NCBI GenBank assembly: GCA_043719295.1
Contig: JAYSUD010000001.1
Coordinates: 97,700-161,699 of the forward strand
DNA from: a bacterium
GTDB taxonomy: Bacteria; Patescibacteriota; Minisyncoccia; Phycocordibacterales; UBA918
Length of the DNA: 64,000 nucleotides
Direction: 5' to 3'
In this document: positions 1,528 through 57,673 of the stretch, piece after piece
Layout: each line of letters starts with the position of its first letter
Numbering within the stretch: position 1 is the first letter of the stretch
Position numbers and translations under genes: made by a program
Notes under the pieces: model-generated
Told to the model about the DNA's origin: nothing
What the model saw: only the letters and a program-made list of their open reading frames with translations
Databases searched by the model: none

Positions 1528-1710
1528 AAACGGCACACTTCTTCGTTGTACTGCGCAAAATACTCCTCAATGTACTATGCGTACACCTCGTCATATTTTA
1601 CTTGTTTCCTACTGAAACTGTTTAGGTTATCGCTCTTTTTCCAAAAGAGTAGGCAACCTCTTGCGAAGTGACATTAAGTCACTTCTCACGCCTCGAATTG
1701 CACTCGTTTG
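1528..1710. repeat. Copy A of the dispersed ~100-bp intergenic element (GGCACACTTCTTCGTTGTACTGCGCAAAATA...CCTCGAATTGCACTCGTTT), carrying an extra ~85-bp internal insertion
   Basis: Near-identical to the copies at 42381, 44101, 52282, 56822 and 57574. Lies between the histidine kinase stop and the uvrA start. Confidence 0.7.
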
Positions 1711-1844
1711 TGCACGTCTTATTGTAAGTTTTTTAAAATTGGTTTGTTTAAGAGAAATTAGGTATACTCTTCGTATACAACTTGTGCCCGCATGCACAAG
1801 CTATTTTAAGTGGTACAAAACATTACAATATTAAATCAATTATT

Positions 1845-4484
1845 ATGCCGGCAAAAAAAACAACAGTGAAATGGGAAGAGCCGGTTGGAGGACAAAAAAT
1901 CATTGTTCGTGGTGCACGTACACACAATCTTAAAAACATTGATGTGGAGATGCCGCGAGGAAAAATGATTGCAATCACCGGACCCTCAGGGAGCGGGAAG
2001 TCTTCGCTTGCATTTGATACTATTTTTGCTGAAGGACAACGTCGTTATGTTGAGTCACTTTCTCCATACGCACGACAGTTTCTCAATAAAATGCAAAAAC
2101 CTGATGTTGATGAGATCTCCGGCCTCTCTCCTGCAATTTCTATTGATCAAAAATCGGCAAGTCGGAACCCACGTTCAACGGTAGCAACAATTACCGAGAT
2201 TTATGACTACTTGCGTATTTTGTATGCACGTGTTGGGCAACCGTATTGCCTTGATGTTGATGTACAGATTCAAAAACTTTCACAAGATGAAATCCTCGGC
2301 ATTGTATTAAAATCAATTGAAGAAAAAGAAGTACAAAAAGCAACAAAAGAACAAACACAAAGTGTGATGGGTATTGAGCTTTCTAAAGGCAGAGTTTCCA
2401 TTTTCTCACCGGTAGTTGTAGGACGTAAAGGTGAGTACTATCAACTTCTCTATGACCTTTTAGCTAAAGGATACGAAACCGTTAAAATTGATGGAGAAAT
2501 AAAACAACTTCGAGAAAAAATTATTCTTACAAAAACAAAACGCCACGACATTGACGTGCTTGTAGATGAGATCTACGTAAGTGAATTTACCCAAGATCCT
2601 AAAAACTCACGAGAGCGACTTTCGGAAGCTGTTGAACTTGCGCTCGCACAGTCAAATGGGTTGGTAAAAATTAAAAGTCCCGACGGAGCAGAACGAACAC
2701 TTTCAGCGAAGTTCATCTGTCCTTCTGACGGATCATCATTTCCTGAGGTTGAACCACGTCTGTTCTCGTTTAACTCACCGTATGGTGCCTGTCCTGAATG
2801 TAATGGTTTAGGAGTTGTGGGGATTTTCCAAAGTGATGTGTGTACGGTGTGTAAAGGTGCTCGATTGCGTCCTGAAGCGTTGCGTGTCTACCTTGGAGGA
2901 GATGGAAAGAAAAACCTCGGAATGAATATTGTTGATTTTACAAACCTCACCGTTAAAGGTGCAACCGATTTCATTGCACAGCTACAGTTAAGTAAGCGAC
3001 AACACGACATTGCATGGCCTGCATTACGTGAAATTGTTGAACGTCTTGAGTTTATGAATAACGTCGGTATTGAGTACCTTACGTTAAATCGTCGTGCAAA
3101 CACCCTTTCAGGAGGTGAAGCACAGCGTATTCGTCTTGCGTCACAGCTTGGTTCGGGCCTTGTTGGAGCACTCTATGTACTTGATGAACCAACAATTGGG
3201 TTACATCAACGGGATAACGACAAACTCGTTAAAACACTCCGTGAACTTTGTGATCTTGGAAATACCATCATTATTGTTGAGCATGATGAAGACACTATCT
3301 ATGCGTCGGACTACCTTATTGATATCGGCCCTGGAGCAGGAACCCATGGAGGGGAAGTGGTGGTGTCGGGCTATTTAGAGCCACTGTTAACTGCTAAAAC
3401 AAATGTATCAGGCTCAATTACGCTTGACTACCTTCGAGGAGACAAAACAATTGCAATACCGGAACGACGTTCAAGTGAGAAAGGTTCAATTAAAATTAAA
3501 GGAGGAAAAGCATTCAACATTAAAAACTTAAATGTTGATATTCCGCTTGGACGTTTGATTACTGTAACCGGAGTTTCAGGAAGTGGTAAGTCAACCTTCA
3601 TGTACGAGATTCTTCATAAGAACCTCCAGTCACGACTTGAAAAAAAGTTTAGAACTCCACATACATACAACTGTACTTCCTTTAGTGGAAGCGAATACCT
3701 TGGGCGATCAATCCTCATTGATCAGTCACCAATTGGAAGAACTCCTCGCTCAAACCCCGCAACATACACGGGTGCGTTTTCACATATTCGTGACATGTTT
3801 GCAGCCTCAGGCGAAGCACGTGCCCGCGGGTGGAAGCCAGGACGATTTAGTTTCAACGTTAAAGGTGGTCGGTGTGAAGCGTGCCAAGGAAATGGTGAGA
3901 TAGCCGTTGAGATGCACTTCCTTCCAACGGTTTACGTGATGTGTGACATCTGCGATGGAAAGCGATTTACAAAAGAAACTCTAGAAGTAACCTACAAGGG
4001 TAAAAACATTTACGAGGTTTTAAACCTCACTATTGAAGAAGCAACGAAGTTCTTTAAAGATGTACCATCAATTCACGAACGTCTTGCGTCGTTGCTTGAT
4101 GTGGGACTCGGATACCTTGCTCTTGGACAAAGTGCAACCACGCTTTCAGGTGGAGAAGCACAGCGGGTTAAAATTGCCTCTGAACTGTATCGTCCGCATA
4201 CACAAAAAAGTATCTACCTCCTTGATGAGCCAACTATAGGTCTCCATTACGAAGACGTTAAAAAACTCATTGAAATTCTGCAACAACTCGTTGTTCGTGG
4301 GAATACCGTGATGGTTATTGAGCACAATCTCGACTTAATCAAGTCTTCTGACTACATTCTCGATATTGGCCCTGAAGGTGGTCTTGGAGGCGGTAATTTG
4401 GTCGCTAAAGGCACCCCTGAAGAGGTGGCACAAGTTGAAAAGTCCCATACAGGTCGGTATTTGAAGCGTGCATTAGAAAAGTAA
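1845..4484 (+). CDS. uvrA: Excinuclease ABC subunit A
   Basis: Two ABC ATPase modules: Walker [17 protein letters not shown] and GVSGSGKST; signature [12 protein letters not shown] and [12 protein letters not shown]. Zn-finger Cys pairs CPECNG...CTVC and CEAC...CDIC. True start is probably ATG 1845 (MPAKKTT); the listed ORF starts earlier at 1782. Confidence 0.95.
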
Positions 4485-4581
4485 GTGAAAGTGTTAATAG
4501 TGCATTTGTACATTCATCTTTCTGGTATACTTAATTTTTAAGAGGCAAAGTGCTTCGTAACCTTAAGCAAGGGAGTTCCTA

Positions 4582-4908
4582 ATGAACGTTCTTTCAACAA
4601 ATCGTGCTGATGCACTGTCGACAGCGTTTGGTGATGCAAAGAATAATCCACTTTCAGCAGTTTGTTGCATCAATCTCGATGTTACTTCAAGTCAAGAAGA
4701 GGTTACTTCAACCTTCACCAAAGTTTTTTTATCAAGATCAAAAAACAACCTGACTTTTGAGTGGTCCCAAAGAACACTCGCTGAAGGCATAAAGCTCTTT
4801 ATTAGGGAAAAGCAAATTCCAGATTTTGTCGCTCGGTTTATCGCCGGTGTCTCTATCGGGGAAATCGACCCAACGACAGTAGTTACCCAAACGAAGTCGC
4901 CGCCCTAA
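4582..4908 (+). CDS. Hypothetical protein
   Basis: 108-aa ORF between uvrA and uvrC, followed by a GC hairpin GTCGCCGCC...GGTGGCGAC. No recognisable motif. Confidence 0.35.
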   Translation: MNVLSTNRADALSTAFGDAKNNPLSAVCCINLDVTSSQEEVTSTFTKVFLSRSKNNLTFEWSQRTLAEGIKLFIREKQIPDFVARFIAGVSIGEIDPTTVVTQTKSPP

Positions 4909-4947
4909 CTAGGTGGCGACTGTTACGTTTGGTATAGTTGATAATCA

Positions 4948-6183: not shown

Positions 6184-6325
6184 CAAAATTCGAATTGTGC
6201 TTGTTATAGCTAACGAGTATGAATCCCGTTAGAAGTTAATGGGATATCTCAAATCGAGGAAAAGAGTGTTTTTTTGTAGAGAGTGTAGAATGTAAGCATT
6301 AAATTATTAATTAACTTCTAACGGG

Positions 6326-7171: not shown

Positions 7172-7207
7172 ATTTTATTCATAAAAGCCCTGTGATAGAA
7201 TAATTGT

Positions 7208-8185: not shown

Positions 8186-8200
8186 TTCCTACCTATCAAT

Positions 8201-9197: not shown

Positions 9198-9207
9198 GAG
9201 TTATTTG

Positions 9208-10722: not shown

Positions 10723-11016
10723 ATGCCCCTCCAACAAACACTTATTTTCATCTTAATCCTCATAAACACTATCTCATTCTTTGTAGTAGCAAACGACAAA
10801 CGGAAGGCAATGCAGAGAGGTGACTCCGAACGCATCCCTGAAGGGCTAATCTTCTTCCTAGCTACTGCCTTCGGCAGTATTGGTGTATACGCCAGCATGC
10901 TCATATTCCGCCACAAAACCCGCAAATGGTACTTTCAGGTGGGTATTCCACTCCTAATTTTGCAAAATATAGCATTGCTGTATCTCATCAATGCTTATTT
11001 TGCATTGTATGTTTAG
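10723..11016 (+). CDS. DUF1294-like small membrane protein
   Basis: 97 aa, three TM segments. A paralogous C-terminal fragment lies at 12102..12266 (FGSIGVYASMLIFRHKTRKWYFQVGIPLLILQN). Confidence 0.55.
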   Translation: MPLQQTLIFILILINTISFFVVANDKRKAMQRGDSERIPEGLIFFLATAFGSIGVYASMLIFRHKTRKWYFQVGIPLLILQNIALLYLINAYFALYV

Positions 11017-12101: not shown

Positions 12102-12266
12102 CCATTCTTCATGGCCGCCGCCTTCGGCGCCATAGGTGTCTACACCGCCATACTCTTCTTCCGCCACAAAACAAGAAAGTGGTACTTTCAAATAGGGATT
12201 CCGCTCCTTATTATCCAGAACTTAGCCGCCGCCTACACCACATGGCAATTTGTCTTTATAAATTGA
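12102..12266 (+). pseudogene. GC-rich fragment (C-terminal ~55 codons) of a second DUF1294 gene
   Basis: Translation PFFMAAAFGAIGVYTAILFFRHKTRKWYFQIGIPLLIIQNLAAAYTTWQFVFIN* aligns to the C-terminus of the 10723..11016 protein. No plausible N-terminus. Codons are strongly GC3-rich (gccgccgccttcggcgcc), unlike the AT-rich host. Confidence 0.6.
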
Positions 12267-24259: not shown

Positions 24260-24853
24260 TTAAGAAGTAGGATTCTTTAGTAATTCTATTTCTTTCTTTA
24301 ATTCTATCATCTTTAGCTCTCTTCCAACCATAATCTTATTAAGTGCTTCAAGATCTTTGATTCGATCTGCAATTTCAAGAGTACGCTCTTCTACTTTTAG
24401 TTCAAGTCCATTAGTATACTCAGCAAGCTTTTGTTCTAGTTGTTTTCGTACTGTTATATCTTCCATGGCGAGAACAATCATGTGTGTACTATCAATATCA
24501 ATTTCACGGGCGTTAAGTAAAATAGTCTTTTGGCCTATTGTTTGAAAGGTATGGGTCACTTCGTAATCTTTGACTACGTTATTTTGAGGCAAAATCTCTT
24601 CAAGAAGGCTTTTTAAAATTGGAATATCCCACTGGCCATTGCCAAGCTCATAGAGGAGTACTTTCTCTGTTTGTAGTGGTTCAACTTGAAAATTTTCGTA
24701 AAAGGTAGGATTTGCCTGTACTACACGAAGATCAGAATCTAGAATAAGAAAAGACTCACGAGCTACTTCAACCAATGTTTTCATGTAGTGCAATGCGAGT
24801 TCTTTTGAGCCCTCTTGAGTAGATTTTACAGTGTTATTAGATAATTTTGTCAT
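24260..24853 (-). CDS. PAS domain / coiled-coil protein (sensor module without a kinase domain)
   Basis: PAS core ESFLILDSDLRVVQANPTFYENF...; C-terminal heptad-rich region EQKLAEYTNGLELKVEERTLEIADRIKDLEALNK. Confidence 0.55.
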   Translation of the reverse strand: MTKLSNNTVKSTQEGSKELALHYMKTLVEVARESFLILDSDLRVVQANPTFYENFQVEPLQTEKVLLYELGNGQWDIPILKSLLEEILPQNNVVKDYEVTHTFQTIGQKTILLNAREIDIDSTHMIVLAMEDITVRKQLEQKLAEYTNGLELKVEERTLEIADRIKDLEALNKIMVGRELKMIELKKEIELLKNPTS

Positions 24854-28023: not shown

Positions 28024-28268
28024 CTCTCTATAGTACTACATGAGCTTCGGGTGCAACAAATCCACAGAAGATTGCGATTATATAGGGTTTTGTGGTATCA
28101 TACCGGCGCAAATAGATGTCGGTTTAGTCTATGTTTGCGAGGATACAGTAATGAGACAATTTTAGACAATAGAGACTTTACAGTGCATATGCATTATAAA
28201 TCTTCATTTGTCTCGAATTGCTCCTTGTATTTGTAGACGAAAAGCTACATTGAGCATTTGCATACATT

Positions 28269-29186: not shown

Positions 29187-29516
<330 letters not shown>

Positions 29517-29537
29517 GGAATCCCAATATCGCCCAAT

Positions 29538-29625
29538 CTACTTCGTTGTACTGCAGCAAATTTTTACTCACCATACAGAGGTATGGCTCGTCAAAATTTC
29601 TTTGTACGCCTCGTATCTCGGGCAA
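29538..29625. repeat. Degenerate copy G of the dispersed intergenic element
   Basis: CTTCGTTGTACTGCAGCAAATTTTTACTCA...GTACGCCTCGTATCTCGGG lies between atpE and atpF. Confidence 0.5.
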
Positions 29626-29693
29626 TCTTGAAATTTCTTATATGCTTCGCATATAAAATTAAAGAACTAATAGCTGTAAGCTAAAAACTAACA

Positions 29694-33159: not shown

Positions 33160-33161
33160 AT

Positions 33162-33479
33162 ATGAAAAAAACTCTTAAAACAATAGTATTAGTTCTGAAC
33201 TCACTACTTATTGTTTTTTGCGTTTCTAGAGCAACTGATTCTATTAGATACTGGGGTACTGGAGGTGAAGATGTTGTTGGTGGTACATTCTATCAAATGA
33301 TAATTGTGTTATTAATATGGTTTTTACCAGCAACTATACTTGCATTCTATACATATAAATTTATTAGATCAGATTTAAGTAATAAAATGTACTTAAAATT
33401 TTTTGCTGTGCTGACACCACTATTTATCGTACTTTTTTTATCCATAAAATTTATGTTTTCTATGTCGGATACCTTTTAG
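33162..33479 (+). CDS. Small polytopic membrane protein inserted in the atp operon
   Basis: 105 aa, 3 TM. Very AT-rich codon usage compared with the flanking atp genes. Confidence 0.4.
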   Translation: MKKTLKTIVLVLNSLLIVFCVSRATDSIRYWGTGGEDVVGGTFYQMIIVLLIWFLPATILAFYTYKFIRSDLSNKMYLKFFAVLTPLFIVLFLSIKFMFSMSDTF

Positions 33480-33480
33480 T

Positions 33481-33535
33481 AGTACTTTTAAGTAATAAGT
33501 TTCTAAAGGAAATTTATTACTCAGTGGTACTGAGT
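33481..33535. repeat. REP-like double-hairpin repeat (copy 1)
   Basis: AGTACTTTTAAGTAATAAGTTTCTAAAGGAAATTTATTACTCAGTGGTACTGAGT: hairpins GTAATAAGTTT/AAATTTATTAC and ACTCAGT-GGT-ACTGAGT. Confidence 0.7.
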
Positions 33536-33542
33536 AAAATAC

Positions 33543-33890
33543 ATGGAATCGAAAATTAAATTTAAAAATGTGGACTATAACAAGACTTCTCAAAGTTTTT
33601 TAAATAATCCTATTTTGACATATCATTTTATTGCTCTTTCAGTAGCAAATTTAATTATATTTTTCTTGCTTTTCACTAGTATACTTGGATTAGTTATATT
33701 TTTCTTGTCAGGTATATTTTTAACCGTACTAGCACTGTCGTTATTGATTACAGTTGTAAGTTTGTCATTAATTTATTGTCAAAGAAAAAAATATATTCTT
33801 GGTTATATAACTTCAGGATCAATAATGGTTTTAGTTAATATATACATACTAATATTAATAATTAGGACTATTATCGAGTTATTTAAATAA
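33543..33890 (+). CDS. Small polytopic membrane protein inserted in the atp operon (second)
   Basis: 115 aa, 3 TM; flanked on both sides by the 55-bp REP-like repeat. Confidence 0.4.
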   Translation: MESKIKFKNVDYNKTSQSFLNNPILTYHFIALSVANLIIFFLLFTSILGLVIFFLSGIFLTVLALSLLITVVSLSLIYCQRKKYILGYITSGSIMVLVNIYILILIIRTIIELFK

Positions 33891-33897
33891 TGCATGT

Positions 33898-33955
33898 AGT
33901 ACTTAGTAATAAGTTCCTAAAGGGAATTTATTACTCAGTGGTACTGAGTTTCAAA
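33898..33955. repeat. REP-like double-hairpin repeat (copy 2)
   Basis: AGTACTTAGTAATAAGTTCCTAAAGGGAATTTATTACTCAGTGGTACTGAGTTTCAAAC; ~90% identical to copy 1. Confidence 0.7.
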
Positions 33956-33997
33956 CAAAAAATTATTAACGACTATTTACTAACAGCTAATTACTAA

Positions 33998-35371
<1,374 letters not shown>

Positions 35372-35899: not shown

Positions 35900-36559
35900 G
35901 TTTGAAACTCAGTCCGAGGTCGGACCTCGTACTGAGTTCGTCAATCAAACGATAATCTTAGTTCCTTAATGATCTCAACAATTTCTGACATGTCATTATA
36001 GGTCATGTTATCCGAGGTCCAACCTCGGATTATGTCTGATTCTTGGTTTAATTTACTTCTATACAATTTTGAATCTGAGATATTGTGTATTTGAAAGTTA
36101 TTTGTAACATAAGAAACGACTTGTCTTAGGTCTTGGTCACTTGGAATGTATTTTGATTTAAATTTACCCTGGAATAACACTCCTGAGCGTTTGTACTTTT
36201 TATTGAAATACATTGTATAACCAACTCCGACGCGTTTCATGAAATATGAAATGCCATTTTCGACTAATTCTTTTAAAACTAAATGATAATGATTTGGTAA
36301 TATGCAATATGAAACTATCTCGACAACTTTCTCGTCGCTCATATCAGCTGGATATAGATGAAGCTTCCCTCGTATTATCTTTGAATTGTATGCTCTAAGT
36401 GAGCTTAAAAAATAACTGTAGTCTTGAGGGTCGTTGAAAATAACCCTCTTCTCAGTACCTCTGTTGTAGCAGTGATAGTACTCATCAATTTCAAACGCAT
36501 GGTTTCTGCTTGCCATATAGTAAATATACAATAAGTCCGAGGTCGGATCTCGGACTTAT
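35900..36559. mobile_element. RAYT-REP unit: IS200/IS605-like HuH Y1 transposase gene flanked by REP-like palindromes
   Basis: 3' flank GTTTGAAACTCAGT-CCGAGGTCGGACCTCG-TACTGAGTT (35900..35938). 5' flank ATAAGTCCGAG-GTCGGAT-CTCGGACTTAT (36531..36559). A third CCGAGGTCCAACCTCGG hairpin lies inside the coding region at 36006..36030. Confidence 0.7.
35941..36516 (-). CDS. REP-associated tyrosine transposase (RAYT; IS200-like TnpA, HuH Y1 family)
   Basis: HuH motif ILPNHYHLVL. YTMYFNKKYKRSGVLFQGKFKSKYIPSDQDLRQVVSYVTNN aligns with TnpA_REP-type YVRYINRKYGRTGHLWEGRYKS...Y-I-NP. Start taken at ATG 36514; the listed ORF starts at a TTG. Confidence 0.7.
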   Translation of the reverse strand: MASRNHAFEIDEYYHCYNRGTEKRVIFNDPQDYSYFLSSLRAYNSKIIRGKLHLYPADMSDEKVVEIVSYCILPNHYHLVLKELVENGISYFMKRVGVGYTMYFNKKYKRSGVLFQGKFKSKYIPSDQDLRQVVSYVTNNFQIHNISDSKLYRSKLNQESDIIRGWTSDNMTYNDMSEIVEIIKELRLSFD

Positions 36560-42057: not shown

Positions 42058-42372
42058 ATGTTTGGAAAAATAAAAAATTACGCAGTTAAAAAGTTACTTG
42101 ATTCACAGCTTAAGAACGTACCCGCTGATCAAAAAGAGCTCATTATGGCCTTGGTTGAAAAAGACCCAGCGATGTTCGAGAAAATTGCTAAAGAATTGCA
42201 AGAGGAGATGAAAAATAACGGTAATAACCAGATGCAAGCTGCAATGAAGGTGCTTCCACGATACCAAAAAGAAATTATGGCGGTGATGCCACAAGAGATG
42301 AAAGAAAAGATGATGAAACAGCAGATGGGGACACAGGGACAGTTTAACCCCAACGGCACAATCCGAAGGTAA
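42058..42372 (+). CDS. Hypothetical Met/Lys/Gln-rich small protein
   Basis: 104 aa; no motif. Confidence 0.35.
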   Translation: MFGKIKNYAVKKLLDSQLKNVPADQKELIMALVEKDPAMFEKIAKELQEEMKNNGNNQMQAAMKVLPRYQKEIMAVMPQEMKEKMMKQQMGTQGQFNPNGTIRR

Positions 42373-42380
42373 AACTTACA

Positions 42381-42483
42381 GAAACGGCACACTTCTTCGT
42401 TGTACTGCACAAAATATTCCTCACTGTACTATGCGTACACCTCGTCATATTCTACTTGTACGCCTCGAATTGCACTCGTTTCT
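42381..42483. repeat. Copy B of the dispersed ~100-bp intergenic element
   Basis: GAAACGGCACACTTCTTCGTTGTACTGCACAAAATATTCCTCACTGTACTATGCGTACACCTCGTCATATTCTACTTGTACGCCTCGAATTGCACTCGTTTC. Confidence 0.75.
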
Positions 42484-42577
42484 AAAAGTTCTACAGTAAT
42501 TCATAAAAATAGAAACCTTCGAATGATATCAACAGAACAAGCGAGCCTTAGGCTCGCTTGTTCTGTATAATCTATCC

Positions 42578-43156
42578 ATGCCTAAAAAAATAGTTATTCT
42601 CCTTGGGAATCCTGACACAGAGACATTTACTGGAGCAATCGCTGACGCGTACCAAAAGGGTGCCGAAGACGCAGGTCACGAAGTGGTTCGATACAACATT
42701 GGAGACATGAAGTTCGATCCAATTCTACATAAAGGATACAAAGTTATTCAGCCACTTGAACCAGACTTGCTTTCATTACAAGAAACAATTAACTGGGCAG
42801 ATCATATTGTTATCGTGTACCCAAACTGGTGGTGTACGATGCCCGCAATCTTAAAAGGTTTGTTTGATCGTATGTGGATTCCCGGGTTCGCATTTAACTT
42901 CGATAAAGTAACCCATAAGTGTATTAAACGTCTAAAAGGTAAAACGGGACGTACTATTGTTGTAGCAGGAACAAATAGTCCATTTAAAACATGGTGGTTA
43001 TATGGTGACTACACAAATGAAATACAACACGGAATCCTTGGTTTTGCTGGAATAAACGCAAATGTCTGTACATTTGGCCCTTCTGAAAAGGTATCAGACG
43101 CCAAAAAGGCAAGTTGGCTCAAGACGGTTGGGAAACTTGGCAAGAGTGCGAATTAG
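42578..43156 (+). CDS. Flavodoxin-like fold NAD(P)H-dependent oxidoreductase (NQO/KefG-like)
   Basis: MPKKIVILLGNPDTETFTGAIADAY...ADHIVIVYPNWWCTMPAILKGLFDRMW. Confidence 0.7.
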   Translation: MPKKIVILLGNPDTETFTGAIADAYQKGAEDAGHEVVRYNIGDMKFDPILHKGYKVIQPLEPDLLSLQETINWADHIVIVYPNWWCTMPAILKGLFDRMWIPGFAFNFDKVTHKCIKRLKGKTGRTIVVAGTNSPFKTWWLYGDYTNEIQHGILGFAGINANVCTFGPSEKVSDAKKASWLKTVGKLGKSAN

Positions 43157-43191
43157 TAGACAAAGTTGTACGCTCTTCTAAAACGTGAAGA

Positions 43192-44085
43192 GTGAGTGTA
43201 CACTTAACTATCATGAATACGCAAACAATCAAAATAGTGTTTATCACGCTCATTGTTGTATTTTGTGTTATTTTCACCGTAACAGTGTATTGGTTTATAT
43301 TTTCAACACTAGTTTCAGAACAAGAAGATGAAGCAGGTCTTTTTGCTTCAAACTACACAAACTATGTAAATGCTGATTGTAATATTGCTGTTATACCGAT
43401 TCTTGGAGATATCATTCCGTATAGAGGAGCTGATATGGATGGTACAACCTATATTGAAAACATGCCCCCTTCAGTTAATATGGAGGATACACTCACCGCA
43501 ATAGAAATCGCTGAATCTGATCCCAACATACAAGGGATTATGCTCCGCATTGATTCAACAGGTGGAACTCCTGTAAGTTCTGAGATGATTGCAAGAGCAT
43601 TGAAGAAAAGTACACTTCCTGTCGCATCATTTATTACTGAAACGGGAGTATCGGGTGCCTACCTTATTGCAACAGGAGCTGATACCATCATTGCCTCACC
43701 ATTTTCTGACATTGGGTCTATTGGAGTGAGCATGTCGTATCTTGATAACTCAGCACAGAATAAAGATGCCGGCTTAGAATTTGTTTCTTTAGCATCAGGT
43801 AAGTTCAAAGACTCAGGAATTGGAGACAAGCCATTAAGTATCGAAGAACGCGCACTATTCGAGAGAGATTTAGCTATGTATCATGACGAATTTGTGTCAC
43901 AAGTGGCTTCAAATCGAAACCTTCCAGTTGAAGCTGTTGCAAAGCTTGCAGATGGTTCAACACAACCTGGAAAGCTAGCACTTGAAATTAAACTTATTGA
44001 TAGTCTCGGAGATATTGAAACCGTGCGAGATTGGTTTGCTCAAACTACTGGGGTAGAATCAGAGGATGTCGTTTTCTGTCAGTAA
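43192..44085 (+). CDS. sppA: Signal peptide peptidase SppA (S49 family, 36K type)
   Basis: N-terminal TM; S49 core LPVASFITETGVSGAYLIATGADTIIASPFSDIGSIGV with catalytic Ser/Lys context. Confidence 0.8.
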   Translation: MSVHLTIMNTQTIKIVFITLIVVFCVIFTVTVYWFIFSTLVSEQEDEAGLFASNYTNYVNADCNIAVIPILGDIIPYRGADMDGTTYIENMPPSVNMEDTLTAIEIAESDPNIQGIMLRIDSTGGTPVSSEMIARALKKSTLPVASFITETGVSGAYLIATGADTIIASPFSDIGSIGVSMSYLDNSAQNKDAGLEFVSLASGKFKDSGIGDKPLSIEERALFERDLAMYHDEFVSQVASNRNLPVEAVAKLADGSTQPGKLALEIKLIDSLGDIETVRDWFAQTTGVESEDVVFCQ

Positions 44086-44100
44086 CATTAGGACTTGCAT

Positions 44101-44200
44101 AAACGGCACACTTCTTCGTTGTACTGCGCAAAATATTCCTCAACGTACAAAAAGTACGTCTCGCCATATTTTACTTGTCCGCCTCGAATTGCACTCATTT
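44101..44200. repeat. Copy C of the dispersed intergenic element
   Basis: AAACGGCACACTTCTTCGTTGTACTGCGCAAAATATTCCTCAACGTAC...CCGCCTCGAATTGCACTCATTT. Confidence 0.75.
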
Positions 44201-44231
44201 ATGTAAGTCCTAGTGAATATATTTAAGCTTT

Positions 44232-44747
44232 ATGAAATCAATTTTAATATTATTTTGTATCCTAGTGCTACTCGCAGGGTTCTTTGCCACTTTTTGGTAT
44301 GTTCAAAATTCAAAGATCAAATCTGAAGTCGAAACAAAACCAATTGAAATAGGTACGGAAGTAAAAACTCCTGAAATACCTCTAGATATCGCAAACCATA
44401 TCAAAGAAAAAAATGACAAAATTGTTCTTGAAAGTCCACTTCCACTTTCAAAAATTACATCACCAGTAACAATCAAAGGAAAAGCAAGAGGATTTTGGTT
44501 TTTTGAAGCCTCGTTTCCAATTTATATTGTAAATTGGGACGGTCTTATCATTGGTGAAGGTATCGCTACAGCAGATGGTGAGTGGATGACTACAGACTTT
44601 GTACCTTTTACTGCATCCATTAACTTCAATCTAGACAAAAACACATACAGTAATAAAGGAGCTTTAATTCTTAAAAAGGACAACCCGTCAGGCCTACCCG
44701 AAAACGACGACGCCCTAGAAATTCCTGTAGTCTTAGAGGTGAATTAA
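44232..44747 (+). CDS. Membrane-anchored Gmad2-like immunoglobulin-like domain protein
   Basis: N-terminal TM; ITSPVTIKGKARGFWFFEASFPIYIVNWDGLIIGEGIATADGEWMTTDFVPFTASINF resembles the Gmad2/GerMN-associated Ig-like pattern. Confidence 0.5.
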   Translation: MKSILILFCILVLLAGFFATFWYVQNSKIKSEVETKPIEIGTEVKTPEIPLDIANHIKEKNDKIVLESPLPLSKITSPVTIKGKARGFWFFEASFPIYIVNWDGLIIGEGIATADGEWMTTDFVPFTASINFNLDKNTYSNKGALILKKDNPSGLPENDDALEIPVVLEVN

Positions 44748-51241: not shown

Positions 51242-52267
51242 ATGATTTCGTTTAAACCAAAACAGGTAACAAAAAAACTCCTCGGAGCCCTTCCACCACG
51301 AGCTAAAGATGTGCTCGAAAAGCGCTACGGCATCGGAACTGAAGGAGAAAGTAGTACGCTTGAGTCCATTGGACAAACGTACGGTATTACTCGTGAGCGA
51401 GTACGGCAAATTGAAAACTACGGTATTACATCAATCCAGAAATCAGCTGAATACAAAGAATTTGAGGCAATTTTTGTAGAACTCCAAGAAATCATAACGA
51501 GCTTAGGCGGTGGACTTATTGCTGAACACGTACTCCTTGAAGAGATAACCAGTGACATAACACTTCGAAATCACATCTATTTTCTCCTTGTAGTTGGTAT
51601 TCCATTCTTCAGAAGTAAAGAAAATACTACGTACGAACATCGATGGTATACCGAGAAGAAAATTGCTGACATTGTCGAAAAGGCACTGACAAAACTCTAC
51701 AGCAATCTCAATCGAGAAGACTTGATTACCGAAGAAGAAATGATTAAACGATTCCGTGACGAACTTATTGAAATTACTGATAAACACGACGAAGTAATAC
51801 TCAAACGTTGGCTACAAATCTCAAAAGACATCAGTGCAAACCCACTTGGTGAATGGGGACAGTCATCAAGTCCAAACGTTAAGGTTAAGGGAATTCGCGA
51901 TTACGCATATTTGGTAGTAAAACGTCACGGATCTCCAATGCACTTTAAAGAAGTGGCAGAAGCAATTCAAGAACTCTTTGACAAAAAAGCGCATACTGCA
52001 ACCTGTCACAATGAACTCATTAAAGATGACCGATTTGTATTGGTAGGACGCGGACTCTATGCACTTACTGAATGGGGATACTCAGCGGGAGTTGTAAAAG
52101 ACGTACTTCGAGATATCCTTGAAGAACATGGTCCACTTTCAAAAGAAGAAATTATCGACAAGGTACGCAAAGAGCGGTACGTAAAAGACAATACCATTGT
52201 AGTAAACCTCCAAGATACAGTTTTGTTCAAAAAACTTTCTAATGGGATGTATTCAATCGCAGAATAA
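51242..52267 (+). CDS. Sigma-70 region-4-like HTH protein with C-terminal HARE-HTH (RNAP delta-like) domain
   Basis: N-terminal LPPRAKDVLEKRYGIGTEGESSTLESIGQTYGITRERVRQIENYG (sigma region 4.2-like). C-terminal MHFKEVAEAIQELF...DDRFVLVGRGLYALTEWGY (HARE-HTH). Confidence 0.55.
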   Translation: MISFKPKQVTKKLLGALPPRAKDVLEKRYGIGTEGESSTLESIGQTYGITRERVRQIENYGITSIQKSAEYKEFEAIFVELQEIITSLGGGLIAEHVLLEEITSDITLRNHIYFLLVVGIPFFRSKENTTYEHRWYTEKKIADIVEKALTKLYSNLNREDLITEEEMIKRFRDELIEITDKHDEVILKRWLQISKDISANPLGEWGQSSSPNVKVKGIRDYAYLVVKRHGSPMHFKEVAEAIQELFDKKAHTATCHNELIKDDRFVLVGRGLYALTEWGYSAGVVKDVLRDILEEHGPLSKEEIIDKVRKERYVKDNTIVVNLQDTVLFKKLSNGMYSIAE

Positions 52268-52281
52268 AGTAGAACTTACGC

Positions 52282-52382
52282 AAATGGCACACTCCTTCGT
52301 TATGCTTCGCAAAATACTCCTCAACGTACTAAATGTACGCCTCGTCGTTTTTTGTTTGCACGCCTCGAATTGCACTCATTTC
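52282..52382. repeat. Copy D of the dispersed intergenic element
   Basis: AAATGGCACACTCCTTCGTTATGCTTCGCAAAATACTCCTCAACGTACTAAATGTACGCCTCGTCG...CACGCCTCGAATTGCACTCATTTCC. Confidence 0.7.
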
Positions 52383-52451
52383 CATAAGTCCTAATAAATA
52401 ATTTTTATATACATAAACGGGGTATTTTGAAAACAAAATACCCCGTTTGTA

Positions 52452-53819
52452 ATGTACAATAGAATACACATGGCACACGATAAAAAAGGGATTCCTATAA
52501 TCGGAGGAATGATAGGCTTTCTTGATACTGAGGATATTAACTATGCAATACCTGCACTGGTCATAGGACTTTTTATTGTTGTAGTTGTACTTAGCTTCAT
52601 CGGGGTCTCACAGTCAAAGATGATTACCTTCATCTTTATTTTATCTCCTTTGTGGTTACCATATTTAACCTTTCACTTGTTCTTTGAAAAATGGCTTGAA
52701 ATGGTAGGAAAAAAATTCAGACTTAAAAGCGGGCGTACAATATTTGAAATAAAACTTCCACCTGAAGTATTTAAGTCACCTGAAGCAATGGAGTTTGTGT
52801 TTACTCAGATTTGGAATCAAGCAAGTCCTGATAACTTGTGGGAAACCTATATTGACGGCAAACGTCCGCCAAACTATACCTTTGAACTAGTATCACGAGG
52901 AGGTGATGTACATTTTTACGCGACCATTCCAAACAAATTCACCGGTGGGTTTGTAGACAACATGTATGCCCAGTATCCAGGGGTTGAAGTCATTAAACAG
53001 GAAGTAGACTACACGGCAGAAGTCCCAAGTGACTTTGGTGATTTTAAAGAGTGGTCAGCTATTTGTTTCCATTTCAATAAAAAAAATGACGAAGAACTTC
53101 CGATTAAAACATACATCGACTTTGGAATGGACAAATTGCCAAAAGAGGAACAGAAAGTTGACCCCATGACACCTATGCTTGAAATGCTTGGTGCTATAGA
53201 TCCACATCGACAGATTTGGATTCAGTTTATTGTTCGTGGACACAGAAAACGCAATTTTAAGAACGGACAATTACATGCAGAAGGAACCTGGGAAAAACGA
53301 ATCCAAGCAAAAATTGATAAACTAATGGGAAGAGATAAAGACAAGAAAGCTGAAATTGAGTTTGAGGGAATGGTAAAACTAACAACTGGTGAACGTGACC
53401 TTGTTGACTCAATGGAACGACAAGCAGGGAAAGCGCCATTTGAGTTTGCATGTCGACTGTTTTATCTCTCAAAGAAACCAGGAGATTATGATGGGGGATT
53501 GTACAGTAAGTTTATTCGTAACTTTGCAGCAACCGAAAATCGTATTGGAAATGGCCTTGGAGTAAACTGGCGAACAGACTTTAACTATAACTGGTTTTCA
53601 GATCCTTTTGCTAAAATTCGACCAAAGCTCAAAAAAGAAGAATTACACCTTTATAAAACTCGTCAGTGGTTTAAACATTTTAAAGTAATGTCTGCTGAAG
53701 AGATGGCAACAATCTTTCACTTACCTGGTACTGTTGCGTTTACCCCAACTTTAAATCGTGTTCCATCAACACGAGGTGAGGCGCCGAATAATTTACCAAC
53801 AGGCAATCTACCAACCTAA
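52452..53819 (+). CDS. Large hypothetical membrane protein (2 N-terminal TM plus ~380-aa soluble domain)
   Basis: No motif recognised; immediately precedes mltG. Confidence 0.4.
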   Translation: MYNRIHMAHDKKGIPIIGGMIGFLDTEDINYAIPALVIGLFIVVVVLSFIGVSQSKMITFIFILSPLWLPYLTFHLFFEKWLEMVGKKFRLKSGRTIFEIKLPPEVFKSPEAMEFVFTQIWNQASPDNLWETYIDGKRPPNYTFELVSRGGDVHFYATIPNKFTGGFVDNMYAQYPGVEVIKQEVDYTAEVPSDFGDFKEWSAICFHFNKKNDEELPIKTYIDFGMDKLPKEEQKVDPMTPMLEMLGAIDPHRQIWIQFIVRGHRKRNFKNGQLHAEGTWEKRIQAKIDKLMGRDKDKKAEIEFEGMVKLTTGERDLVDSMERQAGKAPFEFACRLFYLSKKPGDYDGGLYSKFIRNFAATENRIGNGLGVNWRTDFNYNWFSDPFAKIRPKLKKEELHLYKTRQWFKHFKVMSAEEMATIFHLPGTVAFTPTLNRVPSTRGEAPNNLPTGNLPT

Positions 53820-53821
53820 AC

Positions 53822-54823
53822 ATGGAATTTGATCTAACAGAAAGAAATTACAAAAGTATGAATAAGAGCAAATCAATTTTACTCTTTATTATAATTTCGC
53901 TCATAATTCTCTTTGGTATAGGTGGATTTTCATTTTTCCAAACCACTCCACCTGACTATGCTCTAGAACAAGACGGAGTTACACTGCAAATTGATAAGGG
54001 GATGTCGGTTCAGGCAATTGCAAATCGTGCCGAGGAAGTAGGCTTAGTTCGTTCTTCATTTTTTCTCTATGCACTTCTAACCTATTCGTACGACCCAACT
54101 TCAATTTATGCGGGAATCTATCACTTTGAAGAACCAAAAAATGTATTTGAGGTTGCAAAGAAACTTGCTTCAAACGATATTGATGCTTCGTTACAGAGAA
54201 TTACGTTACCTGAAGGAATTACAAGAAAAGCTATTGCAGAAATTGCACAATCAAAAATTAAAGATTTTGACACTATACTTTTCCTGCAACTATCAAAAAA
54301 CAATGAGGGGTACTTATTCCCTGACACTTATTTTGTATCAATTGATTCAACTGCAGAGCAATTTGTAACCGTACTTATGGATACATTTTCTTTAAAAGTA
54401 GCTCCTTATAAAGAAAAAATTGCACAGTCACAATTTTCTGAATATGAAGTACTCATATTGGCTTCTATTTTAGAACGAGAAGCAAATGACGAAGTTTCTA
54501 TGAAAATGGTCTCAGGAATCCTTCAAAATCGACTCAAAATCGGCATGGCACTTCAAACCGATGCATCTATTGAGTATGTTCTTAATAAAACGTTACAGGA
54601 ACTGAAACCAGAAGATTTAAAAATTGATACACCCTACAATACGTACTTGTATCGCGGATTACCTCCAACACCAATTGGGAACCCTGGACTTCAGGCTATT
54701 GAAGCAGTCCTTGAACCGACACCGTCAAAATACATGTTTTACATTACAGGGGACGATGGCCAATTTTATTACGCAGAGACATTTGAAGCACACAAGAGGA
54801 ACATCTCAAAGCACCTCAAATAG
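53822..54823 (+). CDS. mltG: Endolytic murein transglycosylase MltG (YceG-like)
   Basis: N-terminal TM; YceG core LILASILEREANDEVSMKMVSGILQNRLKIGMALQTDASIEYV...YNTYLYRGLPPTPIGNPG. Confidence 0.8.
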   Translation: MEFDLTERNYKSMNKSKSILLFIIISLIILFGIGGFSFFQTTPPDYALEQDGVTLQIDKGMSVQAIANRAEEVGLVRSSFFLYALLTYSYDPTSIYAGIYHFEEPKNVFEVAKKLASNDIDASLQRITLPEGITRKAIAEIAQSKIKDFDTILFLQLSKNNEGYLFPDTYFVSIDSTAEQFVTVLMDTFSLKVAPYKEKIAQSQFSEYEVLILASILEREANDEVSMKMVSGILQNRLKIGMALQTDASIEYVLNKTLQELKPEDLKIDTPYNTYLYRGLPPTPIGNPGLQAIEAVLEPTPSKYMFYITGDDGQFYYAETFEAHKRNISKHLK

Positions 54824-54900
54824 TACGATATATCGTACTATTTGAGGTGCTTCTGTAAATTTTGCACACAAAGACTCTGTGTGATAGCGTACGTACACAA

Positions 54901-55974
54901 ATGACTACACAAACTACAAAAACTGTGTTTGTTGGACTCTCAGGAGGAGTTGACTCTTCAGTGTGTGCGTTACGTCTTATTAAGCAAGGATATAATGTTG
55001 TCGGAGTTTTTATTAAAGTCTGGCATCCTGATTTTTTAGAATGTAATTGGGAGCAAGAGCGACTTGATGCAATGCGTGTTGCTGCAAAACTCCGCATTCC
55101 ATTTCTTACCTGTGATGCAGAAAAAGCGTATAAGGATGACGTGGCAGATTATTTTATTGGTGAATATAAAATGGGTCGCACACCAAACCCCGATGTTATG
55201 TGTAACAAATACGTAAAGTTCGGTGCATTTTTAGATTTTGCAAAATCTCATAATGCAGACTTTGTTGCAACAGGACACTATGCAATACGAAATGAAAATG
55301 AAGGCTCTTATACGCTCCACAGAGGGGTTGATGGCACAAAAGATCAGTCGTATTTTTTATGGACACTAACGCAAGCACAACTGAAGTACATACTGCTACC
55401 TGTAGGTGATTCAGAAAAGACAATCATTCGAAAAGAAGCAGAGGATGCTGACCTTATAACTGCAGAAAAAAAAGATAGTCAAGGTATCTGTTTTTTAGGT
55501 GCCGTAGATATACCAGAATTTCTTTCGCACTATATTGAACTCAAGGAGGGTGCCGTTCTAAATGAGGAAGGTGTCACTATTGGTACACACAAAGGTGCGC
55601 TCGTATACACAAATGGACAACGACAAGGTTTTACCATTACAACATCAAATCCGGTTCGAAAGCCGTATTACGTGTGTGACAGAAACATTGAAGAGAATAC
55701 GATTACTGTTACAACCAATAAGATTGTTACAGAAATAAAAAGCCTCATTACACTAACTGAATTAAACTACATTGCCTTCGAACCTAAAGTTGGAAACATG
55801 CTTTCAATACAAACTCGGTATCGTCAAAAACCGTCGCTCTGTGAAATTGTTTCTATAGACGAAAAATCGCTTACACTTACGTATACGGAGGTAGGTGAAA
55901 CAGTAAGCTACGGTCAGTCATGTGTATTATATGATGATGAAGTCTGCTGTGGGGGTGGTATTATTACGGAATGA
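54901..55974 (+). CDS. mnmA: tRNA-specific 2-thiouridylase MnmA
   Basis: PP-loop VFVGLSGGVDSSV; catalytic Cys regions NPDVMCNKYVKFG and GICFLG. Start taken at MTTQTTK; the listed ORF starts 13 codons upstream. Confidence 0.9.
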   Translation: MTTQTTKTVFVGLSGGVDSSVCALRLIKQGYNVVGVFIKVWHPDFLECNWEQERLDAMRVAAKLRIPFLTCDAEKAYKDDVADYFIGEYKMGRTPNPDVMCNKYVKFGAFLDFAKSHNADFVATGHYAIRNENEGSYTLHRGVDGTKDQSYFLWTLTQAQLKYILLPVGDSEKTIIRKEAEDADLITAEKKDSQGICFLGAVDIPEFLSHYIELKEGAVLNEEGVTIGTHKGALVYTNGQRQGFTITTSNPVRKPYYVCDRNIEENTITVTTNKIVTEIKSLITLTELNYIAFEPKVGNMLSIQTRYRQKPSLCEIVSIDEKSLTLTYTEVGETVSYGQSCVLYDDEVCCGGGIITE

Positions 55975-56813
55975 GTTTTTCTGTAGCGAAAGCAGACGGT
56001 AACTTCGAGCCATTTAATGCTCAAAAGTTACGGCAGTCTTTACAACAATCTGGCGCAACCTCTGCTGAAATTAGCGCGATTGTAGCTGAAATTGAATCAA
56101 TAATGTATGACGGTATTCATACCCAAGAAATATACAAGTATGCATTTGAACTCCTCCAAAAAAGTGAAGTGACCGTTGCTGCACGATACTCCTTACGAAG
56201 AGCACTTTTTAATCTCGGCCCAACTGGTTTTCCGTTCGAAGACTTTTTAGCTCGATTGTTTGCCTATGAAGGCTACATAACAAAGACGCGTGTATTGTTA
56301 CAGGGTAATTGTGTTGAACATGAACTTGATGTTGCTGCATATAAAAGTGACCATAGTTTTGTTTGCGAAGCGAAATTTCACTCACATCCAGGGATGAAGT
56401 CTGATCTCCAAGTTGCACTCTATTGTCACTCGCGCCTTCTTGATCTTAAGGATACTAAAATCTGTAACGAGGACATTTGCGGTATAAAGGAACTTATGAT
56501 TGTGACTAATACAAAATTTACCACTTCAGCAGAAAAGTATGGTGTTTGTAGCGGACTCACCCTTCTCAGTTGGGATTTTCCTAAAAAGAATAACCTCCAT
56601 GACCGTATTCAAAAATCAGGAATGTATCCCGTTACCGTTTTGCAAACATTGAGTGTTTCTCAAAAAAGAGCATTGATTGAACGCGGGATTGTCGTTTGTG
56701 CTGATTTGTTAGTAAAGCCCGAGTTATTGCGACATGCCCACATCTCACAAACACGAATGCAGTTGGTTCTTGAAGAGGCAAAGAAGCTCAGTCAAACAAC
56801 AGTAGGTCAATAG
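55971..56813 (+). CDS. ATP-cone domain fused to a restriction-endonuclease-like (PD-(D/E)xK, Mrr-like) domain
   Basis: N-terminal ATP-cone pattern FSVAKADGNFEPFNAQKLRQSLQQSGAT. C-terminal EHELDVAAYKSDHSFVCEAKFH (E..D....x10..CEAK). ATG overlaps the mnmA stop (ATGA). Confidence 0.55.
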   Translation: MSFSVAKADGNFEPFNAQKLRQSLQQSGATSAEISAIVAEIESIMYDGIHTQEIYKYAFELLQKSEVTVAARYSLRRALFNLGPTGFPFEDFLARLFAYEGYITKTRVLLQGNCVEHELDVAAYKSDHSFVCEAKFHSHPGMKSDLQVALYCHSRLLDLKDTKICNEDICGIKELMIVTNTKFTTSAEKYGVCSGLTLLSWDFPKKNNLHDRIQKSGMYPVTVLQTLSVSQKRALIERGIVVCADLLVKPELLRHAHISQTRMQLVLEEAKKLSQTTVGQ

Positions 56814-56821
56814 GAACCTCA

Positions 56822-56923
56822 AAAGACGGCGCACTTCTTCGTTGTGCTACGTGAAATATTACTCAATGTACTATACGTACACCTCGCCATATTTTACTTG
56901 CACGTCTCGAATTGCAATCGTTT
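56822..56923. repeat. Copy E of the dispersed intergenic element
   Basis: AGACGGCGCACTTCTTCGTTGTGCTACGTGAAATATTACTCAATGTACTATACGTACACCTCGCCATATTTTACTTGCACGTCTCGAATTGCAATCGTTTT. Confidence 0.7.
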
Positions 56924-57022
56924 TTGAGATTCCTACAAAACTAGACTAGGTTTTGTCAAGACTTTTCTTATTTTTAGCTATGATATAATTGGCGTATATA
57001 AGCATTATCACAGAATTATTGT

Positions 57023-57559
57023 ATGTCAGAACAAGAGAAGCAAGAAAGCCAGAAGACTGTAGTTGCATTTGCTGCAGGACTTCTTATTGGAGGATTGCTC
57101 GTATGGATTTTTGGAGGTTCACCTAAGACAGAGGAGGTTGCACAAGAAAAAACAGATACAACAACTACAGAAGAAGTAACTACAACAACAGGTGAAGAAG
57201 TCAAGCCGGAAGAAGTAAAAACTGATGCAAAACCAGTCCTCGTTACTGGAGAAGGAAAGATTGAAGTTGATGAAGTTAAAGCAGGTAAGGAAGTAAAACT
57301 TTCAAGTGCAACATTCCCAACTGATGAAGGATGGATTGGAGTACGTGATTACGCAAACGGACAACCTGCAGGATTACTTGGAGTTGCGCGATACAGTAAA
57401 GAACAAGGGCTTGTTCCAGAATCAGTTGTATTACAACGTTCAACAGTTGCAGGTAACTCTTACGCTATTGTTTTCTATAGTGAAAGTGGAGACCGTGTGT
57501 TCAGTTTAGCTGATGATAAGCAGATTGAGGGGGCTTTTGCAACATTTACCGCAAAATAG
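57023..57559 (+). CDS. Membrane-anchored Thr/Glu-rich hypothetical protein
   Basis: N-terminal TM VVAFAAGLLIGGLLVWIFGG; low-complexity TTTTEEVTTTTGEEVKPEEVK linker; C-terminal beta domain. Confidence 0.4.
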   Translation: MSEQEKQESQKTVVAFAAGLLIGGLLVWIFGGSPKTEEVAQEKTDTTTTEEVTTTTGEEVKPEEVKTDAKPVLVTGEGKIEVDEVKAGKEVKLSSATFPTDEGWIGVRDYANGQPAGLLGVARYSKEQGLVPESVVLQRSTVAGNSYAIVFYSESGDRVFSLADDKQIEGAFATFTAK

Positions 57560-57573
57560 TTTTTAGCCTCCAC

Positions 57574-57673
57574 AAGCGGCACACTTCTTCATTGTCCTGC
57601 AGAAAATATTTCTCATCGTACTTCATGTACGACTCGTCACATTTTCTTTGTACAATTCGAATTGCACTCGCTT
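57574..57673. repeat. Copy F of the dispersed intergenic element
   Basis: AAGCGGCACACTTCTTCATTGTCCTGCAGAAAATATTTCTCATCGTACTTCATGTACGACTCGTCACATTTTCTTTGTACAATTCGAATTGCACTCGCTTC. Confidence 0.7.

Follow-up and report, generated by a model that had tools for sequence, protein, structure and literature searches.

Bacterial miniature inverted-repeat transposable elements (MITEs) are 100–200 bp long, have TA termini and are transcribed into long stem-loops (PMC2229807). The effect of the enterobacterial repetitive intergenic consensus (ERIC) on the upstream mRNA depends on the direction of the element and on whether the ribosome arrives at the end of the preceding gene, while the hairpins of Correia/NEMIS elements and of the pneumococcal repeat units (RUP) are co-transcribed and were proposed as RNase III substrates (PMC2229807). 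A further context is given by the repetitive extragenic palindromes (REPs), as extragenic palindromes are mostly located downstream of genes (PMC3733652, PMC3116915). The present study concerns a dispersed, hairpin-forming repeat that occurs seven times in a 64-kb stretch of a patescibacterial genome (the window; contig JAYSUD010000001.1, positions 97,700 to 161,699) and recurs in other genomes and metagenomes, whose loci are numbered L0xx. Bacteria of the Candidate Phyla Radiation (CPR) have tiny, streamlined genomes, and to our knowledge no family of small palindromic repeats has been described in them. The literature on repeats, MITEs and palindromes in CPR, Patescibacteria and Kaiserbacteria yielded no paper on the element. 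We conclude that the element family is new for CPR bacteria and belongs to an established class of small bacterial repeats. It is probably a family of non-autonomous palindromic mobile elements of approximately 125 bp in Paceibacteria, i.e., a bacterial MITE of the ERIC/Correia/RUP type.

The element resembles ERIC, also called the intergenic repeat unit (IRU, 127 bp), in its size, its imperfect palindrome, its single long stem-loop and its TA termini. Both occupy transcribed intergenic regions including those within operons, occur across many genera and show filled as well as empty sites. The hosts are CPR bacteria and not Enterobacteria, and sequence similarity was neither sought nor expected. 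Unlike ERIC, the element has a near-fixed orientation (39/43 copies), abuts or overlaps the stop codon and is better conserved in its internal core than at its ends. Correia/NEMIS of Neisseria and RUP of Streptococcus pneumoniae, both MITEs of the IS630 type, are, like the element, non-coding inverted repeats (100–155 bp) with TA ends that lie next to genes. However, Correia and RUP carry conserved terminal inverted repeats matching a known transposase (RUP-IS630-Spn1) and insert in either orientation, whereas the termini of the element are variable, its orientation is biased and the 600 kb searched contained no parent insertion sequence (IS). REPs, bacterial interspersed mosaic elements (BIMEs) and REPINs are also extragenic palindromes downstream of co-directional or convergent genes and form clusters and tandems. 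They share with the element a TAG tag at the hairpin foot, a presumed folding as a single strand and a gene in the genome that resembles the REP-associated tyrosine transposase (RAYT). In contrast to REPs of 20–40 nt, of which REPINs are doublets, the arms of the element are unstructured by themselves and GTAG is rare, and the RAYT-like gene of the window is flanked by different palindromes.

Copies, hairpin and hosts of the element

A single repeat family was returned by the repeat finder, with six copies at 1516, 42370, 44089, 52270, 56812, and 57562 of the window that were 65–80% identical to the reference copy. A nhmmer profile made from these six added a degenerate copy at 29538–29617 (E 6e-12) and broke copy 1 into 1520–1605 and 1687–1718, around an insertion of about 81 nt at 1606–1686. 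The covariance model, which was built from five window copies and whose E-values are rough, recovered seven full-length copies with a unit of about 125 nt (125–129 nt), corresponding to approximately one copy per 9 kb. All seven copies lie at the sites that a first-pass annotation of the sequence had named. The boundaries given there were too narrow, as similarity and complementarity reached about 12 nt further on both sides when the copies were aligned with their flanks. The same annotation had listed a solitary 3' box near atpB. This box (28211–28223) carries two mismatches and was seen by neither nhmmer nor the covariance model; because equally good matches occur on the opposite strand at 24788 and 61337, it is regarded as a chance occurrence and not as a copy. 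In total, the 13-mer box occurred nine times in the window with up to two mismatches, compared to 1.2 expected occurrences. The copies differed from each other by 20–35% and are therefore not the duplicated assembly sequence that had been raised as a caveat.

The whole unit is a single imperfect palindrome that folds into one long hairpin on either strand, as seen in the six alignable copies. The GTAC cores and one inverted repeat had been recognized in the first pass, while the palindrome spanning the entire element had been overlooked. Folding energies of these six copies ranged from -39 to -48.5 kcal/mol on the minus strand (z -5.4 to -7.7) and from -19.5 to -31.3 kcal/mol on the plus strand (z -1.7 to -4.3), and with DNA parameters the minus strand was the more stable one in all five window copies folded. 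Along the folding strand, the element consists of a TAG...CTA foot, a variable outer stem of 10–13 bp, a conserved irregular core, a variable middle stem, two G-A loops and a tip. The core pairs 5' TGCAATTCGAGGCG with the opposite CAACGAAGAAGTGYGCC 3' and contains a bulged A, a U-G/G-U step, an A-G mismatch and purine loops. The two G-A loops are arranged in tandem with one C-G pair between them, the conserved tip reads GTAC-N5-GTAC, and the consensus end of the element is TAGGACTTACGCAAACG.

Strong covariation was found by multiple alignment, which had been suggested as a check for a conserved structure. Over 81 distinct aligned rows, standard pairs were present in 90.4% of cells compared to 66.5% after shuffling, and 46 of 48 pairs showed double-sided changes. 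When the partners were slid by 1–3 columns, pairing fell to 34–48%. The outer helix alone comprised 26 pairs, of which 90.9% of cells were paired and 25 had double changes. Fitting the alignment to the model biases the pairing statistic upwards, but given the effect size and the slid controls, maintenance of the hairpin is beyond doubt.

The two strands are not equivalent. With RNA parameters and independently of the alignment, the folding strand gave the lower energy in 78 of 79 copies; the mean difference from its complement was 13.3 kcal/mol. G-U pairs (170) outnumbered A-C pairs (80) when three positions with a G-U consensus were excluded; the A-C cells originated mostly from two ambiguous columns, and the non-standard cells were mainly purine-purine. 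The mRNA-sense strand of the element is pyrimidine- and C-rich, with a GC skew of -0.19 to -0.35 compared to +0.03 for the plus strand of the window. The preserved fold belongs to the strand complementary to the mRNA, an asymmetry that hints at a single-stranded intermediate or a ligand. A mutational origin of the G-U excess was rejected, as deamination of the non-template or leading strand would place G-U pairs on the mRNA-sense strand, opposite to the data. Mutation is thus not thought to be the cause, because the usual deamination biases predict the reverse asymmetry.

Other identities were considered for the hairpin. The sole ATG-led frame on the folding strand is missing or stopped in copies 4 and 6, so the element is non-coding; a small peptide gene on the minus strand, suggested by an ATG after GAGG, was rejected since the ATG is absent in copy 4 and directly followed by a stop in copy 6. 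Against Rfam 15 at the gathering score, a tRNA was the sole match of the window and the element remained unmatched, and at E up to 10 over 42300–44300 nothing overlapped the two copies located there. A guide RNA from a TIGR-Tas stem-loop array, of the box C/D or K-turn kind (PMC12045711), was examined because AUGACGA and UUGA recall boxes C and D. It was rejected as the tandem G-A pairs stack on the stem without a 3-nt bulge, the would-be spacers pair with each other and the copies are dispersed after housekeeping genes.

Copies outside the window were retrieved by exact patterns in the conserved core, by which diverged subfamilies are under-sampled. With one genome per species, the element was found in 12 contigs from 8 metagenome-assembled genomes (MAGs) labelled as Kaiserbacteria, Paceibacterota, Taylorbacteria and, in one case, 'Saccharibacteria', and the metagenome scan added 65 contigs. 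From these 12 genome and 65 metagenome loci, the covariance model recovered 86 distinct copies. All named hosts were CPR MAGs, and the G+C content of hosts and copies ranged from 32 to 62%. The window is part of a 269-kb contig, and its YchF protein has its closest matches among proteins of the Parcubacteria group. No match to the element was found among viral contigs, and a phage origin was rejected on these grounds. At L054 (10618–11131), four units follow each other head to tail with a period of about 128 nt directly after the gene of a KH-domain protein, the second of them with its tip replaced by a terminator-like hairpin. An enlarged variant of 233 nt at L055 (9156–9388) has perfect outer arms (TAGGACTTACGCAAACG), extra paired segments and a truncated core.

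Gene ends, orientation and sites in relatives

The first-pass annotation had described copies as beginning shortly after stop codons, and this placement was borne out by all seven. The upstream open reading frames (ORFs) of the window end at 1518, 29516, 42372, 44085, 52267, 56813, and 57559, i.e., -4 to +2 nt from the model edge. Beyond the window, the proposed check for a bias in position and orientation was carried out with open frames of at least 70 codons terminating on the flank where the folding strand of the element has its 3' end, using crude longest-frame ORF calls. Of 79 copies, 50 had a stop codon between -15 and +12 nt from the model edge, with a peak at -4 to +4, compared to 5 of 75 when the opposite side and strand were examined. 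The crude calls add noise and cannot produce such a bias. Stop codons at the edge were TAA (26), TAG (19), and TGA (2). The edge stop is often the TAG or TAA of the stem base, and a stem-base TAG was present in 33 of 80 copies.

The neighbouring genes could be assigned clearly for 43 copies. In 32 of these, both neighbours are co-directional and antisense to the folding strand, and in 7 they converge, so that the orientation rule is kept in 39; the exceptions are 2 copies with divergent neighbours and 2 in the reverse arrangement. Where two copies occur between one convergent gene pair (L038, L061), each stands behind its own gene, which is why the orientation is considered to track the gene and not the replication fork. 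The 51 element-abutting proteins fell into 45 similarity clusters. Checked upstream proteins comprised L27, RNase III, a KhpA-like KH protein, NusB-NUDIX, ATP synthase c, YbeY, EF-P, LemA, and a histidine kinase, while Pfam matches of the upstream proteins in the window included an S49 peptidase, a sigma-70-region-4 protein and an ATP-cone protein.

Terminator-like hairpins in mRNA sense were located up to 90 nt downstream of 21 of 79 copies, compared to 10 of 79 for a control stretch. About a dozen of the 21 are clear terminators composed of an A-run, a stem and a T-run, several of them bidirectional and some only 5–15 nt from the element. The order in terminator-bearing copies is gene, stop, element, terminator and next gene; where a gene has its own terminator, the element is thus upstream of it. 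This order places the element in the 3' untranslated region (UTR) of the upstream gene and not in a downstream leader or promoter. The element itself is no intrinsic terminator, as a T-run at its 3' edge occurs in 4 of 79 copies in mRNA sense and in 6 of 79 on the other strand. A terminator/anti-terminator switch was also rejected, because a U-tract is lacking and, by reading the sequence, no complementarity of the 3' arm to the downstream terminators was seen.

In the window, all copies fold best on the minus strand, which is the strand quoted for them here. Copy 1 (1514–1724, minus strand, 71.6 bits in the model) lies after a histidine-kinase gene (stop 1516–1518) and before uvrA. It is interrupted by the insertion of about 81 nt at 1606–1686, which is nested in the element and has its own hairpin, GAAGTGAC-ATTAA-GTCACTTC; even with this insertion, copy 1 forms a branched hairpin, with -82 kcal/mol for the minus and -60 for the plus strand. 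The nested sequence belongs to a second small repeat family on Paceibacteria contigs, whose module GAAGTGAC-N5-GTCACTTC was also found at L030 (1765–1796), L041 (4133–4183), and L084 (about 3960–3990). Blastn matched it in L041 (86% over 51 nt) and L030, and the L084 insert was recognized by eye. Copy 7 (29513–29642, minus strand, 82.3 bits) is a diverged copy with a variant core inside the atp operon, between atpE (stop 29514–29516) and atpF. Its upstream gene encodes ATP synthase subunit c, as shown by a Pfam ATP-synt_C match.

Copy 2 (42368–42496, minus strand, 134.4 bits) holds the TAA stop of a 104-aa gene (42370–42372) inside its stem base and folds with -39 kcal/mol on the minus strand (z -5.4) and -19.8 on the plus strand (z -1.7). 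Between this copy and the next gene, a perfect 16-bp hairpin was read in the sequence at 42533–42565, which aligns with L078 and L080. It reads as the terminator belonging to the 104-aa gene, kept in relatives without the element. The spacer after this gene (window 42373–42577) is a hot spot of insertion. It is empty in L080, L083, and L085, contains a structured insert of about 200 nt common to L078 (6541–6819) and L082 (1510–1773), and contains in L084 (3776–4176) an insert of about 400 nt with five near-perfect hairpins.

Copy 3 (44087–44215, minus strand, 137.4 bits; -40.5 kcal/mol on the minus and -26.1 on the plus strand) starts 2 nt past the stop of the S49 peptidase gene and ends 17 nt ahead of the Gmad2 gene. 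Copy 4 (52268–52396, minus strand, 132.3 bits) follows a sigma-70-region-4/HARE-HTH gene (stop 52265–52267); downstream of the copy, the terminator-like hairpin AAACGGGGTATTTTG-AAAA-CAAAATACCCCGTTT (52415–52448) is followed by TGTACAAT and the next gene. Copy 5 (56809–56938, minus strand, 129.1 bits) lies after an ATP-cone/AF1548-like gene (stop 56811–56813) and folds with -40.5 kcal/mol on the minus and -31.3 on the plus strand. Copy 6 (57560–57688, minus strand, 132.4 bits) begins 1 nt past the stop (57557–57559) of a 178-aa gene and shows the most pronounced folding, with -48.5 kcal/mol on the minus strand (z -7.7) and -23.3 on the plus strand. A terminator-like hairpin with an A-run and a T-run (57699–57735) lies downstream of this copy and ahead of a PD-(D/E)XK nuclease gene. 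Directly 3' of the terminators, the -10-like hexamers TATAAT, TACAAT, and TATACT were observed, with the next genes beginning 7–20 nt further on (42566–42580, 52449–52470, and 57736–57756). This short spacing suggests that 5' leaders may be very short or absent in this organism.

Filled and empty sites were compared in syntenic regions fetched around YchF homologues of relatives (84–97% identity). None of these regions contained the element; in all, 159 kb of loci from relatives yielded no copy, compared to seven copies in the 64 kb of the window. In L080, about 25 nt separate the stop codon from the conserved terminator hairpin where the window has copy 2, and at the site of copy 4 the distance from stop to terminator is 22–30 nt in L078 and L080, in each case without the element. 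The window has the same flanks at both sites plus the 125-nt unit beside the stop codon, while the native spacer, the terminator and the flanking genes are conserved. At the 52.3-kb site, L078 and L080 also retain an equivalent hairpin and the -10-like TGTACAAT, and the gene downstream of copy 4 may therefore have its own promoter signal past the terminator. TA occurs at both ends of all seven window copies and of 37 of 80 copies overall; these TAs pair with each other and may just be the stem base, and the exact junction is blurred by the divergence of the empty sites.

Repeated occupancy of the same sites was also found, as copies with the variant core follow atpE in three genomes (window, L020, and L034) and the KH-protein gene in three. 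Some copies are, judging by this recurrence, probably old or recurrent.

Two further repeats were noted in the window. Between atpG and atpD (33160–34000), two small ORFs are located at 33162–33479 and 33543–33890, the second without a Pfam match and flanked by direct repeats of 54 nt (33482–33535 and 33896–33949, 89% identical) that each form a hairpin. They look like an insertion into the atp operon, since atpG and atpD are adjacent in L083 and L085. A direct repeat of 122 nt (75% identical) connects 10852–10973, inside the ORF at 10723–11016, with 12105–12226, a stretch without a listed ORF.

A probable mobile element and alternative explanations

A MITE/REP-like mobile element had been one of the ideas of the first-pass annotation, and it agrees with the empty orthologous sites, the tandem arrays and the nested insertion. 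The possible 3'-UTR role that had also been noted in the first pass is supported by the tie of the element to the upstream stop codon. Several observations weigh against a MITE. A strong strand asymmetry is not usual for MITEs and is accounted for only through the steps suggested in the last section. The terminal 10–13 bp, where binding by a DDE transposase would be expected, are the most variable part and covary, while the internal part is the most conserved. The TA...TA ends are themselves palindromic and not separable from the stem base, and no longer target duplication is visible. In the 600 kb searched, there was no full-length IS with the same ends, no cognate transposase and no ORF-bearing element; outside of model matches, the consensus end TAGGACTTACGCAAACG occurred only at the ends of larger variants or of duplicate loci. 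The divergence of 20–35% within one genome indicates that there was no recent burst, and the copies at atpE and the KH-protein gene suggest long residence or a host function.

The strongest competitor, which we still consider unlikely, is a cis-acting 3'-UTR structure selected by the host, perhaps once mobile and now domesticated, that tunes decay, processing by RNase III or RNase E, or read-through. The terminating ribosome would open the base of the hairpin, and within operons (atpE|atpF) the structure would set differential expression. Such a structure is in line with the strict position and orientation relative to the stop codon, the strong covariation even in old, diverged copies, the conservation of the core over hosts of 32–62% G+C and the filled sites behind atpE and the KH gene in three genomes each. 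ERIC also provides a precedent with its ribosome- and orientation-dependent effect on the upstream mRNA (PMC2229807). However, at the corresponding sites close relatives lack the element and retain their native terminator, none of the 159 kb from relatives contains a copy, the tandem arrays and nested insertions look selfish, and the structurally selected strand is not the one present in the mRNA.

Somewhat less probable is a REPIN-like single-stranded DNA (ssDNA) element moved by an HUH (Y1) tyrosine transposase. A single-copy Y1_Tnp/RAYT-like gene of this type (196 aa, minus strand, 35941–36531) exists in the window. A folded bottom strand serving as its substrate would account for the G-T pairs, the TAG foot and the conservation of the bulges. 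The strand-specific folding in 78 of 79 copies with RNA parameters and in 5 of 5 window copies with DNA parameters, the conserved irregular hairpin with its bulged A, mismatches and TAG at the 5' foot, the clusters and tandem copies as in BIMEs, and the location downstream of genes as for REPs (PMC3733652) are in favour of such an element. Homologues of the Y1 gene are single-copy and syntenic across Paceibacteria, in the arrangement atpC|Y1 in L078, L084, and L085 and uvrB|Y1|tgt in L086 and L087, and the gene is missing from that site in L083.

The link between this gene and the element is, however, supported neither by flanking repeats nor by co-occurrence. The gene has its own 23-nt palindromes (AGTCCGAGGTCGGAYCTCGGACT) at 35911–35933 and 36534–36556 and a third inside its 3' end at 36009–36031; these are unrelated to the element and were found nowhere else in the sequences searched. 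While the window holds both element and gene, six loci with Y1 homologues, including L078 and L079, have no element within 10 kb in this comparison at the level of loci. Folded by itself, the 5' arm reaches the same energy as shuffled sequence (-10.2 kcal/mol), so that the arms are not REP hairpins, and GTAG was present in only 5 of 80 copies compared to TAG in 33. The opposite orientations in the convergent pairs of L038 and L061 follow the gene, unlike IS608-type elements, which follow the fork. On these grounds, the element is not filed as a REPIN; mobilisation as ssDNA would still explain the asymmetry.

With the same low probability, the functional molecule would be the folded bottom strand itself, an irregular hairpin of 125 nt that is bound as ssDNA or RNA by a Paceibacteria-specific protein and homes to stop codons in gene orientation. 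If this were true, transposition or recombination would read gene ends, coupled to terminating ribosomes or RNA polymerase, in place of random TA insertion followed by selection.

It is very improbable that the copies encode small structured RNAs on the folding strand, each antisense to the 3' end of its neighbouring gene. The z-scores of the minus strand (-5.4 to -7.7, compared to -1.7 to -4.3 for the plus strand), its G-U pairs and tandem G-A loops and the covariation would suit such an RNA. No conserved promoter occurs at a fixed distance, however, and in many copies the folding strand is preceded at 5–15 nt by a terminator hairpin with a T-run, or the next gene begins 3–20 nt away; in both cases no room is left for a promoter of this RNA. 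In addition, a T-run follows the hairpin in only 6 of 79 copies, the sites of relatives are empty and Rfam gave no match.

The main idea of the first-pass annotation, a portable promoter or leader with the 3' box as -35 or operator that defines a downstream regulon, finds hardly any room in these results. In some copies, TTGCAC can be read 16–17 nt ahead of A/T-rich hexamers, which had been taken for a -35/-10 pair, but a consensus scan reported no promoter-like site at the 3' box of any copy. The element tracks the upstream stop codon and lies at varying distances from the downstream start, 7 of the 43 copies that could be classified are located between convergent genes and thus have no downstream gene to drive, and in a subset terminator-like hairpins stand between the element and the downstream gene. 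The -10-like motif past the 52.3-kb terminator is common to relatives without the element, and the neighbours are unrelated housekeeping genes instead of a regulon.

The attC sites of integrons lie directly 3' of ORFs and fold better on the ORF-complementary strand, as does the element, but attC-like recombination sites bounding gene cassettes are the least credible explanation, since core housekeeping genes in operons (atpE, rpmA, rnc, efp, and nusB) precede the copies, cassettes, R boxes (RYYYAAC/GTTRRRY in the consensus) and an integrase in the annotated part of the window are lacking, and the outermost 10–13 bp pair and covary, which recombination within the site would not preserve.

Proposed mechanism and significance

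As a mobile element of the MITE type, the repeat would insert at a TA at or next to a stop codon and would sometimes provide the TAG that ends the gene. It would then be co-transcribed within the 3' UTR of the upstream gene, where the mRNA-sense strand forms the weaker of the two hairpins. In the manner of ERIC and Correia, it may modulate the processing or decay of the upstream message, while being dispensable for the expression of either neighbour. The preferred folding of the complementary strand could reflect a constraint on propagation, in which a single-stranded intermediate is recognised by a transposase via the irregular core. Alternatively or additionally, selection may act against a very stable, GAGG-rich hairpin with purine loops right after the stop codon in the mRNA.

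The element is common to several lineages of Paceibacteria, and its covariation is among the cleanest obtainable for a hairpin. It can be used as a marker that breaks assemblies, as a seed for the annotation of 3' UTRs and terminators, and as a source of presence/absence polymorphisms at the strain level. Taken together, insertion at stop codons, a nearly constant orientation and selection for structure on the strand absent from the mRNA provide a handle on how small mobile elements choose site and strand in unculturable organisms.

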